A stretch of 37,577 nt of DNA from a virus (lineage: Duplodnaviria; Heunggongvirae; Uroviricota; Caudoviricetes), in IMG/VR virus record IMGVR_UViG_2935054407_000002, positions 1 through 37,577 of that record. One strand, given 5' to 3'. Below the pieces are notes generated by a model, which saw only the letters and a list, made by a program, of their open reading frames with translations, did no database searches and was not told where the DNA came from. Position 1 is the first letter of the stretch; the number at the start of each line of letters is the position of its first letter. Made by a program: the position numbers and the translations under genes. Positions 12,049 through 21,528 of this stretch are shown here, in pieces.

Positions 12049-12326
12049 CCCCGCGAATCTGGCCGCCCCGCCAGTACGACGACGAGCCCAACCTGAACTG
12101 GCAGGACTTCGCCCTATGCGCGGAGACCGACCCTGAGGCGTTCTTCCCCGAGACGGGAGGCTCGACCGAGGAGCCCAAGCGAGTGTGCCGCGCGTGCGAG
12201 GTCCGGACGCAGTGCTTGGAGTACGCGTTGGAGCATGGGGAGCGGTTCGGCATCTGGGGCGGGCTGTCGGAGCGGGAACGCCGGCGGCTCGCGGGGCAGG
12301 ACGAGAACTACGAGGTCGCGGCGTGA
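12045..12326 (+). CDS. whiB: WhiB-family Fe-S transcription factor (WhiB2/WhmD-like)
   Basis: WQDFALCAETDPEAFFPE, CRACEVRTQCLEYAL, GIWGGLSERERR; four conserved Cys. Confidence 0.95.
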   Translation: MTPRIWPPRQYDDEPNLNWQDFALCAETDPEAFFPETGGSTEEPKRVCRACEVRTQCLEYALEHGERFGIWGGLSERERRRLAGQDENYEVAA

Positions 12327-13324
12327 CGGTCCTTGTTGGTCACATCGTCGACTCCGCTCTCGCCTCGTCGGGTCAAGCCAAGGAGCCGCTGTGGAAGGAG
12401 CATCTCCGCGCCGAGATGGCGCTCCTTCAGCCGTCGATCCAAGAACTGGTGTGGGCGTGGCTGAGTAGGCAGCGGTCACCGCACACGGGCGCCGCGTATG
12501 GCCGAGACCTGAGAGAGTGGCTCGCCTTCTGTAACCAGTTCGACCTGGACCCGCTGACGGTCGACGTCGGCCATGGGGACGTGTACGCCCGTTCGCTCCA
12601 GGTGCGCGGGCTGTCTGCTCGGTCGGCGGCTCGAAAACTCGCCGCGGTGTCGTCCTGGTACACCTACCTCGTTCGCCGGCGGGCCATCAAGGCGAACGAG
12701 TTCGGCGGGGCGAATCGGCCGGAGACGAACCGTAAGGAGTCGAAGACGGTTGGGTTGACGGGGTCGGAGGCGGCGGCGATGGTGCGGGCCGCGATCCGGG
12801 ATCCGCATCGGCAGCGTTTGAGGACGGCGGCGATCATCGGGCTGATGATCTCGGTTGGTCCTCGGGTGGCTGAGGTCGTCGCGCTGGAGTTGGGCTCGCT
12901 TGGTTATGAGCGGGGCATGCGGACGGTTCGGATCGTCGGTAAGGGCGAGAAGATCCGGACGCGGCGTCTGCCGGCGGAAGCGGGTCAGCTTCTGGACGCG
13001 TATCTCGCCGAGCGGGGTGATGCTCCGGGTCCGCTGTTTTTGACGGCTGGCGGTAGGCCGATGCGTACCGGTGGCATTGTGGATCTTGTTTCCCGGATCG
13101 CGCGGCAAGCTGGGCTGTTCATGCCGGAAAGAGTCACTCCACACACTCTTCGCCATACTTTCGCCACGGTGGCCGAAGAGAGCGGTGCGTCCGTTCGTGA
13201 GATCCAAGATGCTCTTGGTCACGCTTCTGCCGCAACGACCGAGATTTATCTTCACGCGCCGAAGCGAATCGAAAATGACCCTTCAGTACGAGTTGCGAAG
13301 GTCCTGACGTGGACCGGGTCATAA
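12323..13324 (+). CDS. XerC/D-like tyrosine recombinase
   Basis: SPHTGAAYGRDL N-terminal domain; RVAEV, GKGEK, HTLRHTFAT, LGHAS, TTEIY catalytic motifs; GTGA-coupled start. Confidence 0.93.
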   Translation: MTVLVGHIVDSALASSGQAKEPLWKEHLRAEMALLQPSIQELVWAWLSRQRSPHTGAAYGRDLREWLAFCNQFDLDPLTVDVGHGDVYARSLQVRGLSARSAARKLAAVSSWYTYLVRRRAIKANEFGGANRPETNRKESKTVGLTGSEAAAMVRAAIRDPHRQRLRTAAIIGLMISVGPRVAEVVALELGSLGYERGMRTVRIVGKGEKIRTRRLPAEAGQLLDAYLAERGDAPGPLFLTAGGRPMRTGGIVDLVSRIARQAGLFMPERVTPHTLRHTFATVAEESGASVREIQDALGHASAATTEIYLHAPKRIENDPSVRVAKVLTWTGS

Positions 13325-14411: not shown

Positions 14412-14455
14412 AACGGTATTGCTTATCCCCTCGATGCCCCCTAGATTAACGGTAT
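14412..14455 (+). promoter_or_regulatory. Housekeeping-sigma-like promoter flanked by direct repeats
   Basis: TTGCTT (14419-24)-N17-TAGATT (14442-47); AACGGTAT at 14412-19 and 14448-55. Confidence 0.6.
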
Positions 14456-14482: not shown

Positions 14483-15208
14483 ATGAGCGACATCACCGTC
14501 ACCACGGAGGACGGCAAGACCAGCGTCTGCTCCCCCTACGACACCACCTTCGTCTCCAAGGCCAAGACCATCGGCGGCCGGTGGAACGGCCCGGCCAAGG
14601 CGTGGCAGTTCGACGCACGCGACGAGAACCGCGTCCGTGACCTGCTCCGCGAGGTCTACGGCACCGACGGCTCCCCGACCGACGACAGCGACCTCGTCAC
14701 CGTCCGAGTCCGCCTCGCCGACCACGAGGTCAGCTACCGCGACGGGGCCGACGCCAAGTTCGCGGGCCGCCGCATCGCAACCCGGCCCGGCCGTGACAGC
14801 GACGTCCGCCTCGCCGCGAACGTCGTCCTCATCGCGGGCAAGCTCCCCAGCACCGGCGGGTCGATGCGCTACCCGCAGATCAACGCCGGTGACGACGTCA
14901 TCGTGGAAGTCCGCGACATCCCCCGCGCCACGCTCAGCCTGGAGCGGGAGGGCAGCTACGAGATCGTCGGCGAGACGCGCGGCGAGGTCGACGTGGACGC
15001 GCTGCTGACCGAGCGGGAGCAGCTGCTGGCCCGCCTCGCGGAGATCGACGCGCTGCTGCCGGAGCCGGAAGGCACCGAAACCACCACCCAGGAAGCGGCC
15101 AAGGCGCTGGGAGTGTCCGTGCGAACCGTGCAGCGATGGGCCGCCACCGGCAAGGTCGAGGCCCGCAAGAACGACCAGGGCCGCTGGATCATCACCATCA
15201 CCATCTGA
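14483..15208 (+). CDS. Hypothetical protein with C-terminal HTH (excisionase/MerR-like)
   Basis: TTQEAAKALGVSVRTVQRWAATGKVEARK HTH; N-terminal SPY..FV..AK..GGRW...KAWQF domain; RBS gagggag. Confidence 0.85.
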   Translation: MSDITVTTEDGKTSVCSPYDTTFVSKAKTIGGRWNGPAKAWQFDARDENRVRDLLREVYGTDGSPTDDSDLVTVRVRLADHEVSYRDGADAKFAGRRIATRPGRDSDVRLAANVVLIAGKLPSTGGSMRYPQINAGDDVIVEVRDIPRATLSLEREGSYEIVGETRGEVDVDALLTEREQLLARLAEIDALLPEPEGTETTTQEAAKALGVSVRTVQRWAATGKVEARKNDQGRWIITITI

Positions 15209-15222
15209 AAGGACAGATCACC

Positions 15223-15702
15223 ATGGCGAGAGTCAACGTCTACAGCCGCGACCCCTACGAGGACAAGACGCTTCTGGGCTGGTTCGACCCCGCGACCTGC
15301 GTCGAGAACATCGACGAAGACACCCGCTGGAATGGCAACAATCACATCGGCATCATGAGCGGCGGACAGGTCGGCTACGAGCGCCTCTACCGCACCAAGG
15401 GCGGCCGATGGGTCCGCTACTACAACTTCACCAACGAGTTCAACGGACCCGAATACTACGAATTCCTCACCGACGAGGCGGCCCGCGACTGGCTGATCAA
15501 GAACGGCAACGACGAGATCGTTGAGAAGTACTGGGGTGAGCTGGAAGAGGAGCGCGGCCCTGGGCGCCCCGAGGTTGGGTCAGCCACCAACCTTCGTCTC
15601 GGTGATGAGCTGACCAAGCGGGTCGACGCGGAGCGGCAGGCTGGCGAGTCTCGTGCGGCGGCGGTCCGGCGTCTGCTGGAAAAGGCGCTCGACTCTGCCT
15701 GA
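15223..15702 (+). CDS. Hypothetical protein with C-terminal ribbon-helix-helix domain
   Basis: RBS aaagga; GRPEVG..TNLRLGDELTKRVDAE...SRAAAVRRLLEKAL RHH pattern; aromatic-rich N-terminal domain (ERLYRTKGGRWV). Confidence 0.85.
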   Translation: MARVNVYSRDPYEDKTLLGWFDPATCVENIDEDTRWNGNNHIGIMSGGQVGYERLYRTKGGRWVRYYNFTNEFNGPEYYEFLTDEAARDWLIKNGNDEIVEKYWGELEEERGPGRPEVGSATNLRLGDELTKRVDAERQAGESRAAAVRRLLEKALDSA

Positions 15703-15739
15703 ACCGCTTGCGGCGCCCCGCTGGGGCGGGCATGCTGAA

Positions 15740-15916
15740 CGCCTCCCCACTCCGGTGGGGTTGACCCTCCAAGGTCAGCTTTGGGTATTTGCTCCCCGCA
15801 CCTGCGGGGATGGCCCCGGTGAGGTCGGGTACTGCTGAGTTGGCCCCGCCTACGCGGGGATGCTCCATGGCCTTGTCTTGAACGTAAATCGGCCCCGCGC
15901 TCGCGGGGATACGGAA
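15740..15916 (+). CRISPR. Cas-less mini-array: four degenerate type I-E-like 29-bp repeats, three 20-21 nt spacers
   Basis: Repeats start at 15740, 15789, 15839 and 15888 (period 49/50/49); each is N5-CCCC(G/A)C-N4-G(C/T)GGGG-(A/T)T-N6; the best copies ttgctccccgcacctgcggggatggcccc and gttggccccgcctacgcggggatgctcca match the actinobacterial I-E repeat pattern. Confidence 0.8.
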
Positions 15917-15947
15917 GAAGCCCTCGCCCATCCCGGGTGGGGGCTTC
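15917..15947 (+). terminator. Hairpin immediately after the last repeat
   Basis: gaagccc...gggcttc with inner cgccc/gggtg. Confidence 0.55.
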
Positions 15948-17627: not shown

Positions 17628-18095
17628 ATGACCGTCATCCTCGACCGGCCCGCCACCACCCCCCGCACCCTCATCAGCCCCGCCCTGTTCGACCGGCTGA
17701 CCAAGCGGATCCGCGCCGACCACCCCGCCCACGCTCACCAGGCCGACGTCATCATGGAGCAGGCGCTCGCGTTCCTCGCCGCCTGCGCCGCCCGCCCGGG
17801 AGCCCGGCTCGCGCCGTCCGAGACCGTCGACATCGGCTGGCACACCTTCATCCTCTACACCCGGGAGTACGCCGAGTTCTGCCAGCAGAACGCCGGCCGG
17901 ATCATCCACCACGCCCCCACCGACGAGGAAGGCGCCGACAGCGGCGGGTGTACGGCGGCTGACACCGTCGCCGTCATGCGCGAGCTCGGCCTGCCGGTCG
18001 TCTCCAGCCTGTGGGGGCACGCCGCGGCGTGTGAGGGCAGCGGCACCGGCAAGTGCAGCCAGTGCCACCAGGGCTGCACCGACAGCAACAAATAG
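17628..18095 (+). CDS. Glycine-rich-domain (GRDP-like) protein with Cys-rich tail
   Basis: QALAFLAACA...PSETVDIGWHTFILYTREYAEFC...IIHHAP; C-terminal CEGSGTGKCSQCHQGC; RBS aggagga. Confidence 0.78.
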   Translation: MTVILDRPATTPRTLISPALFDRLTKRIRADHPAHAHQADVIMEQALAFLAACAARPGARLAPSETVDIGWHTFILYTREYAEFCQQNAGRIIHHAPTDEEGADSGGCTAADTVAVMRELGLPVVSSLWGHAAACEGSGTGKCSQCHQGCTDSNK

Positions 18096-21449: not shown

Positions 21450-21528
21450 CGCTCTCGACCGGATTCGAACCGGCGTCTGCGGCTCCCCGAAGGGATGCCG
21501 CGATCCTTGGCCGCTGGACGACGAAAGC
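21450..21528 (-). ncRNA. tRNA-Glu-like cloverleaf with the anticodon loop replaced by a UUCG-capped stem
   Basis: GCTTTCG TC GTCC AGCGGCCAA GGAT C GCGGC [A TCCC TTCG GGGA] GCCGC AGAC GCCGG TTCGAAT CCGGT CGAGAGC G; all four stems pair; no 7-nt anticodon loop; no encoded CCA. Confidence 0.85.

Follow-up and report, generated by a model that had tools for sequence, protein, structure and literature searches.

Structure and setting of the array

The viral DNA examined in the current study (the window: 37,577 nucleotides (nt), positions 1 to 37,577 of IMG/VR record IMGVR_UViG_2935054407_000002, Caudoviricetes) carries a short array of hairpin-forming repeats that resembles a CRISPR array but is not accompanied by CRISPR-associated (cas) genes. 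The complete record is a provirus of 101,577 bp, with an estimated completeness of 94%, and includes an integrase, tail proteins and an open reading frame (ORF) of the size expected for a tape measure protein. The array (Table 1) lies outside any CRISPR-cas locus, in a 348 bp intergenic gap between two convergent genes, gene B and a regulator-like gene of 488 amino acids (aa) on the minus strand. A position outside such a locus is shared with the viral elements known as Cracr arrays and with prophage-borne regulatory mini-arrays (see below).

Four units of 29 nt (U1–U4), with starts spaced at 49, 50 and 49 nt, enclose three pseudo-spacers (S1–S3). All four units have the same layout, consisting of a 5-nt flank, a 6-bp stem enclosing a 4-nt loop, and an 8-nt tail (5-6-4-6-8). 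The stem is CCCCGC/GCGGGG in U2–U4 and CCCCAC/GTGGGG in U1, where a compensatory A-T pair is found, and no two units have the same loop (TCCG, ACCT, CTAC and GCTC). A degenerate repeat-like stretch, U0, abuts U1; its hairpin has no equivalent in L010, the closest relative (described below), and it may represent a decayed leader-proximal repeat or an end-of-gene hairpin.

Table 1. Features of the array and of the surrounding prophage region (positions are those of the window).
Feature	Position (nt)	Strand	Description
Tyrosine integrase	12185–13324
Promoter-like sequence	14419–14447	+	TTGCTT-N17-TAGATT, upstream of genes A and B; read in the sequence
Gene A	14483–15208	+	241 aa; N-terminal domain without assignment, C-terminal HTH_17/MerR-like helix-turn-helix
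Gene B	15223–15702	+	159 aa; beta-rich N-terminal domain, C-terminal ribbon-helix-helix (RHH) domain
U0	15715–15739	+	GCCCCGCTGGGGCGGGCATGCTGAA; degenerate repeat-like stretch; 72% identity to U3 and U4
U1	15740–15768	+	cgcct CCCCAC tccg GTGGGG ttgaccct; I-E-like repeat unit; handle TTGACCCT; kept in L010
S1	15769–15788	+	pseudo-spacer, 20 nt, CCAAGGTCAGCTTTGGGTAT; common to L010 S1, single mismatch at position 18
U2	15789–15817	+	ttgct CCCCGC acct GCGGGG atggcccc; I-E-like repeat unit; handle ATGGCCCC
S2	15818–15838	+	pseudo-spacer, 21 nt, GGTGAGGTCGGGTACTGCTGA
U3	15839–15867	+	gttgg CCCCGC ctac GCGGGG atgctcca; handle ATGCTCCA; close to the genuine repeat of G100
S3	15868–15887	+	pseudo-spacer, 20 nt, TGGCCTTGTCTTGAACGTAA; homologue of a host CreR-like pseudo-spacer; predicted guide against the cas8e 5' region
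U4	15888–15916	+	atcgg CCCCGC gctc GCGGGG atacggaa; terminal unit; degenerate handle ATACGGAA
GC-rich hairpin	15917–15947	+	13 bp, directly 3' of the array; terminator-like; kept in L010
Tail genes	24.9–34 kb

The element differs from a canonical adaptive CRISPR array in that the loops and flanks of its repeats vary, its spacers are only 20–21 nt long, and no match to Cas6e, Cas7e or Cas8e was found anywhere in the 101.6-kb record. Across the same record there are 133 perfect 6-bp hairpins, among which a CCCC[GA]C stem occurs in these four units only. Their number and their phasing at 49–50 nt argue that, within this record, they are neither chance structures nor a dispersed repetitive extragenic palindromic (REP) element. 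A search of the array region against Rfam, at both gathering and E-value thresholds, returned neither CRISPR-DR nor any other family that would explain it, and blastn of the locus against GenBank phages gave one trivial match only. An earlier first-pass annotation, made without database searches, had given the same four units and spacer lengths, the four different loops and the compensatory swap in U1, all of which can be read in the sequence. The absence of cas genes that it noted for the window extends to the whole record, and REP-like hairpins, which it had named as a possible refutation, are not what is seen in that record. The terminator-like hairpin it placed immediately after the array is present, but lacks a U-tract, and U0 had escaped that annotation.

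Similarity of the units to type I-E repeats

Genomes G001 (Streptosporangium), G002 (Planomonospora) and G003 (Streptomyces), which are hosts of related prophage arrays (see below), each encode Cas6e together with 61-nt-periodic arrays, and their genuine I-E repeats are GTCGGCCCCGCACGCGCGGGGGTGATCCG, GTCCTCCCCACGCCCGTGGGGGTGAGCCG and GTTCTCCCCGCGCAGGCGGGGGTGTTCCG, respectively. In G100, a member of the host family (Streptosporangiaceae), the genuine repeat is GTCGGCCCCGCGCCCGCGGGGATGGTCC(G/C), with which U3 of the window (GTTGGCCCCGCCTACGCGGGGATGCTCCA) agrees at 22 of 25 non-loop positions. The stem and flanks of the window units match the genuine repeats of G100, G001 and G002, and their layout is that of I-E repeats, which supports classing them as type I-E-like repeats, as the first-pass annotation had proposed. 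The host lineage does carry such systems, with Cas8e in 65 of the 201 family genomes sampled.

Array spacing of 49 nt was found in six of these 201 genomes, four of them with Cas8e, numbers too small for any conclusion on co-occurrence; in one of the six it reflects a short spacer inside a genuine array. G100 has one 20-nt spacer (49-nt spacing) within a genuine and otherwise 61-nt-periodic I-E array (G100:C43:37354-37418, L343). A mini-array standing alone, with two repeats around a single 32-nt spacer, is present in the genome of Streptosporangium sp. NPDC023963 (G001:C2:227181-227257, L032), about 790 kb from the I-E cas locus of that genome.

Related arrays in other prophages

Five related loci carry arrays beside homologues of gene B, in either orientation, so that, with the window, I-E-like arrays adjoin gene B or its homologues in six loci. 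The closest relative, L010, is a prophage of Streptosporangium sp. NPDC023963 (genome G001) with six units separated by five spacers of 20 nt. In a Planomonospora prophage (L006, host G002) there are two units, in inverted orientation with respect to gene B; the metagenome contigs L007 and L008 have three and two units, respectively, and in a prophage of Streptomyces sp. NBC_01511 (L019, host G003) the units are 61 nt apart, as against 49–50 nt in the other arrays. Comparison of the window with L010 shows a clean indel of 2 x 49 nt, L010 having the two additional units; S1 is common to both, and S3 of the window corresponds to S5 of L010.

Across these prophages the stems, the 49-nt phasing and the handles are kept, while loops and most spacers change and the number of units varies by whole 49-nt steps. 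The accompanying gene B proteins are only 62–90% identical, and the stems, phasing and handles persist nonetheless. Preservation of stems, phasing and tails alongside changing loops argues for selection on structure rather than decay, which is what the first-pass annotation had inferred from the window by itself; it had also suggested looking for homologous arrays behind homologues of 14483–15702, and the five loci, in which stem spacing is kept, are such arrays beside homologues of gene B.

The array of L019 (3050–3400) consists of three units at 61-nt spacing, with three 32-nt spacers that are mutual variants. Spacer 1 of L007 (TGGAGCAGCCGCTATCGTTC) matches window positions 17755–17774, within an ORF at 17628–18095, except at its positions 9, 14 and 15 (17 of 20 identical), and the match recurs at L010:5019, that is, in both the window prophage and its Streptosporangium sp. 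relative. It may reflect a guide directed against a gene of a rival prophage, or may be due to chance.

Short-spacer arrays in viruses and the constraint on their spacers

The window array belongs to a wider class. IMG/VR contains 63 loci with two perfect CCCCGC-N4-GCGGGG hairpins placed 48–50 nt apart. In a wider scan allowing spacings of 36–66 nt, the matches listed included at least 46 loci at 61 nt, at least 7 at 49 nt, at least 7 at 50 nt and at least 11 at 52–55 nt, with almost none between 37 and 48 nt. Spacings of 49, 55 and 61 nt are mixed within many arrays, corresponding to spacers of 20, 26 and 32 nt, i.e. to steps of 6 nt. Among 112 unique spacers, drawn from arrays chosen for having at least one spacing of 47–51 nt, 48 are of 20 nt, 28 of 21 nt and 18 of 32 nt. 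The first-pass reading of 20 nt as 32 minus two Cas7 steps fits both these length classes and published data on spacers shortened by 12 nt (PMC5159557). One viral contig (L080:520-700, IMGVR_UViG_2862725297_000001) has four identical units, with the 20-nt spacer GAGCGCAAGGGCGAGACGTC three times over.

The 8-nt tails of the class, the units of which were gathered by demanding a perfect stem, share a motif, [A/G/T]TGnnCCn, that is present in 97 of 114 internal units and in only 7 of 53 terminal ones. Arrays were oriented by means of this motif, a choice that does not of itself produce the difference between internal and terminal units. Such a difference would follow from a role of the tail as 5' handle of the RNA that comes next.

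A guide-like constraint is seen in how related pseudo-spacers diverge. In 36 pairs from different loci, selected for at least nine of the first 12 positions being alike (all weighted equally), mismatches at positions 1 to 18 number 1, 2, 15, 3, 5, 20, 3, 5, 4, 3, 2, 19, 13, 15, 23, 23, 20 and 32, with peaks at positions 6, 12 and 18. At these positions Cascade flips the base out of the duplex between guide and target. The 36 pairs, which group into a small number of families, are not independent of one another; the pattern is nevertheless seen in several of these families taken singly, for example CGTTA[A/C]GGGCA[G/C]AG. The pseudo-spacers of the class thus show a Cascade-type, guide-like pattern of constraint.

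Relationship of S3 to a host CreR-like element

The cas3-cas8e intergenic region of G100 (266 bp) contains a two-repeat mini-array on the strand opposite to cas8e. Its first repeat, which has a 27-nt loop, is followed in order by the handle ATGGCTCG, the 21-nt pseudo-spacer TGGCCGTGTCTCGAACACCTT and the second repeat CTCGGCCCCGCATCCGCGGGGATACCAAA. S3 is identical to this CreR-like pseudo-spacer at positions 1–5, 7–11 and 13–16, that is, across positions 1–16 except for 6 and 12, and the handle and repeat flanking S3 also align with the G100 element. About 0.002 S3-like matches would be expected by chance for the three spacers of the window and the 104 kb searched. In a four-way alignment of S3, the G100 element, S5 of L010 and S1 of L006, positions 1, 2, 4, 5, 7–11 and 15 are invariant, while all four bases occur at position 6. 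S3 has the nine or more matches, proximal to the protospacer-adjacent motif (PAM), to a host CreR or CreA pseudo-spacer that Liu et al. (10.1101/2024.10.29.618823) use as a criterion. Mini-arrays with 20–21-nt pseudo-spacers are located upstream of cas8e in two other genomes of the family, which argues that the short length is native to CreR-like regulators.

A candidate target for S3 lies just upstream of cas8e. In both G100 (TAGCCATGTCTAGGAATTTCT, flank AAT) and G197 (TGGCCGTGTGTCGGAAGGGAC, flank TAT) an S3-like site, matching at 9 of 10 seed positions, occurs on the antisense strand at exactly -36 to -16 relative to the cas8e ATG. Chance alone would give about 0.3 sites of this kind in those parts of the 93 cas8e regions that lie nearest the start, and the same offset and strand in the two genomes give the site added weight. 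This upstream site is a likely candidate for the DNA target of S3. The first-pass annotation had suggested repressive guides of the CreR type and relaxed-seed searches to find their targets; S3 supports the repressive-guide option, with its CreR homology and its matching sites upstream of cas8e in G100 and G197, and no counterpart or target was found for S1 or S2.

An independent parallel is provided by L019, the second spacer of which departs from the cas3-cas8e intergenic region of its own host at positions 12 and 20 only (18 of 20 matched); another, weaker site in that region is flanked by AAG (the two sites are at L192:11121 and 11296). In three family genomes (L221, L222 and L225) the viral spacer L056 S3 (GATTCCAGGGGCGTGCAGTA) matches the antisense strand inside the cas8e coding region, at its extreme 5' end and roughly where a conserved PW motif is encoded. 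The position of this site, within the coding sequence, suggests that some guides may block elongation and not the promoter.

Genes adjacent to the array

Upstream of the array, genes A and B follow a promoter-like sequence that is the likely source of read-through transcripts into it. Gene A matches Pfam HTH_17 (E 4e-9) and phrog_18108 (E 8e-40), and has a GC content at third codon positions of 0.93. Gene B matches phrog_4738, annotated as 'transcriptional repressor' (E 4e-12). Its AlphaFold2 model has a predicted local distance difference test score of 89 (about 90 for the N-terminal domain), and the C-terminus fits RHH folds with Z scores of 4–5. A Foldseek search of the model against the PDB gave nothing at E <= 0.001, and VIA-align recognised the RHH part only, leaving the N-terminal domain without a match. 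In architecture alone, the protein is reminiscent of fusions between anti-CRISPR (Acr) and anti-CRISPR-associated (Aca) proteins. A sequence search recovered 206 homologues of gene B, in actinomycetes, and a search of viral contigs for related loci with gene B as query found none. The protein is 90% identical in Streptosporangium sp. NPDC023963, in agreement with Streptosporangium as the host. A tRNA is predicted by Rfam (39.9 bits) on the minus strand at 21450–21528, between the integrase/regulatory region and the tail genes.

Proposed function and alternative explanations

On the most probable interpretation (about 0.68), the prophage encodes type I-E crRNA-like regulatory RNAs in an array of the 'Cracr array' type. 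Transcription would run from left to right, probably by read-through from the operon of genes A and B, and host Cas6e would cut at the 3' base of each hairpin. The products would be three RNAs of about 49–50 nt, each with an 8-nt 5' handle, a 20–21-nt guide and a 21-nt hairpin tail. These would load into a shortened Cascade with two fewer Cas7 subunits, able to bind DNA but poor at recruiting Cas3. At least the third guide, as a copy of host CreR, would bring Cascade to a position just upstream of cas8e and so repress the Cascade operon. All three RNAs would in addition be rivals of genuine crRNAs for Cas proteins, and the overall outcome would be to shield the prophage and its progeny from I-E immunity.

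Several observations weigh against this interpretation. Neither S1 nor S2 has a CreR counterpart or a cas-proximal target in the 93 cas8e upstream regions. In 401 family genomes the seed of S1 finds only noise in coding sequences and the G001 prophage array itself; with its handle it gives 36 matches in the metagenome collection, none beside a repeat hairpin except for one in an ordinary array. The matches of S2 with its handle in 401 genomes from the order are overwhelmingly to GC-rich coding sequence, with no target found. In IMG/VR the two spacers together have six matches, all to unrelated contigs of 43–59% GC and at chance level. Within the 101.6-kb provirus, S1–S3 have no self-target at five or fewer mismatches, seed matches being noise. 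Nor do 84 short viral spacers, taken as a set, show seed enrichment in the 93 cas8e regions over reversed and shuffled controls, and the five spacers of L010 have no convincing site in the cas locus of their own host, G001. The flanks of the S3-like sites, AAT and TAT, are not canonical E. coli I-E PAMs. With respect to the handle form [A/G]TGnnCCG, positions 2–7 fit in U1–U3 but position 8 is never G in the window units (across the class it is G in 57 of 114 internal units). No promoter-like site is apparent in the sequence between gene B and the array. The evidence for a type I-E system comes from family genomes and from the hosts of related arrays, the strain that harbours the window being known from the 101.6-kb record only.

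The lack of assigned targets for S1 and S2 leaves room for guides directed elsewhere than at cas genes, such as at competing prophages or plasmids, further defence loci or promoters of the host, with Cascade acting as a programmable repressor. Virus-borne mini-arrays aimed at other viruses are known (PMC6858448), and spacer 1 of L007 fits an ORF only about 2 kb from the window array, present also in L010. However, the matches of S1 and S2 in IMG/VR are the chance ones in unrelated low-GC contigs, the prophage itself has none, and the sole guide with an identified counterpart, S3, points to cas8e, so that this explanation is unlikely. Pure decoys of the Racr type, which would soak up Cas6e, Cas5 or Cas7 and in which the 20-nt stretches would have no guide function, would account for two of the three window spacers having no detectable target, and cas-less repeat mimicry is what defines Racrs (PMC10651486). 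Racrs are solitary units, whereas the four units of the window form a phased array. Moreover, the PAM-proximal 11–16 nt of spacers recur between viruses with variation concentrated at positions 6, 12 and 18, spacer lengths fall into 6-nt classes, and S3 is homologous to a CreR pseudo-spacer, none of which is expected of inert linkers; decoys alone are a quite unlikely explanation.

An ordinary CRISPR array in decay, carried by the prophage as a functionless remnant, could be imagined from the diverged repeats, the degenerate terminal repeat and U0, and the absence of cas genes and leader. It is very improbable, as the stems, 49-nt phasing and handles are kept across prophages with gene B identities of 62–90% while the loops drift, the short-spacer class recurs in 63 viral loci, and 20-nt spacers are no product of canonical adaptation. 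Lowest in probability are hairpins unconnected with CRISPR, whether terminators in tandem, elements of the REP type or sites bound by the neighbouring RHH protein. The convergent intergenic gap beside a DNA-binding protein, and the lack of a CRISPR-DR match in Rfam, are what such structures would predict, but no other hairpin of the record is of this type, the units agree with I-E repeats of the host family in both hairpin and flanks, gene B is absent beside the module in most of the array-bearing viral loci searched, and the same module is found within a cas locus as the CreR-like element of G100.

A more far-reaching version of the Cracr-type interpretation, speculative and on balance doubtful, is that the array is a multi-target silencing cassette. 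S1 and S2 would steer a Cas7-poor, interference-dead Cascade to sites beyond cas8e (defence genes, host promoters or rival prophages), and gene B would be a new partner of the Acr/Aca type. If true, the prophage would be using the CRISPR effector of its host as a general programmable repressor.

Comparison with known systems

The first-pass annotation presented tandem short-spacer units as something unfamiliar, but this overrated their novelty, since arrays of this description have been reported as 'Cracr arrays' (Liu et al., bioRxiv 10.1101/2024.10.29.618823, version of July 2026). A Salmonella prophage array with pseudo-spacers of 24 and 21 nt undergoes Cas-dependent maturation and causes a seed-dependent loss of I-E immunity, and viral Cracr arrays, including I-E ones with 21–24-nt pseudo-spacers, repress PcasA. 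In CracrIE1, mutations of the spacer seed abolish the anti-CRISPR effect and leave RNA abundance unchanged. I-F Cracrs have pseudo-spacers with a median of 19 nt, and their short guides give complexes with four, not six, Cas7-type subunits. The listed I-E arrays carry two or three spacers.

That the window array belongs to this recently described kind, and is not a new kind, is well supported. Like those Cracrs, it is prophage-borne, lies outside a cas locus and is an array of degenerate repeats around short pseudo-spacers; it shows PAM-proximal homology to a host CreR, and its predicted target is the cas8e/casA promoter region. It differs in having an actinomycete host (Streptosporangium), Actinomycetota being named in the text of the paper in a summary only, and in its three guides (five in the close relative) as against the published two or three. 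Only one of its guides has a CreR counterpart, its neighbour is an RHH protein and not a known Acr, and, unlike the published examples, it is known from sequence alone. In this reading it would be a clean natural example, from an actinomycete prophage, of a virus turning the I-E Cascade of its host on the host's own cas operon. Discrete length classes of 20, 26 and 32 nt, guide evolution with 6-nt periodicity and arrays of up to five guides are testable additions. With their help, anti-CRISPR RNAs and the sites they act on could more readily be predicted in Streptomyces-type hosts, in which I-E systems are an obstacle to phage work and genome engineering; they also point to naturally compact guides for Cascade-based repression.

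Other known elements share some of these properties. Shmakov et al. 2023 (10.1101/2023.03.03.530964) described regulatory mini-arrays of two repeats that adjoin cas3 in I-E loci and are copied on prophages of Acinetobacter and Moraxella; the partial complementarity of such host CreR mini-arrays to cas promoters, with mismatches tolerated at every sixth position, resembles that predicted for S3. Unlike them, the window element is on a prophage and not in a cas locus, with three guides strung together, and the first repeat of the similar G100 element has a 27-nt loop. Racrs (Camara-Wilpert et al. 2023, PMC10651486) are likewise viral, cas-less mimics of CRISPR repeats that use host Cas proteins, but are solitary units without a functional spacer, whereas the window units are phased and their spacers guide-like. 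Interviral mini-CRISPR arrays (Medvedeva et al. 2019, PMC6858448) are also small, cas-less, virus-borne and reliant on host Cas proteins; their spacers are full-length and match rival viruses, in contrast to the window array, in which spacers are 20–21 nt, no viral protospacers were found for S1 or S2 in IMG/VR and S3 is similar to a cas regulator. The nearest biochemical parallel is with E. coli spacers shortened by 12 nt to 20 nt (Kuznedelov et al. 2016, PMC5159557), where processing by Cas6e is independent of length and Cascade is poor in Cas7, giving no protection against phage and only a trace of plasmid loss. Both have 20-nt spacers between I-E repeats, but theirs is a laboratory construct, while the window array is natural and conserved.

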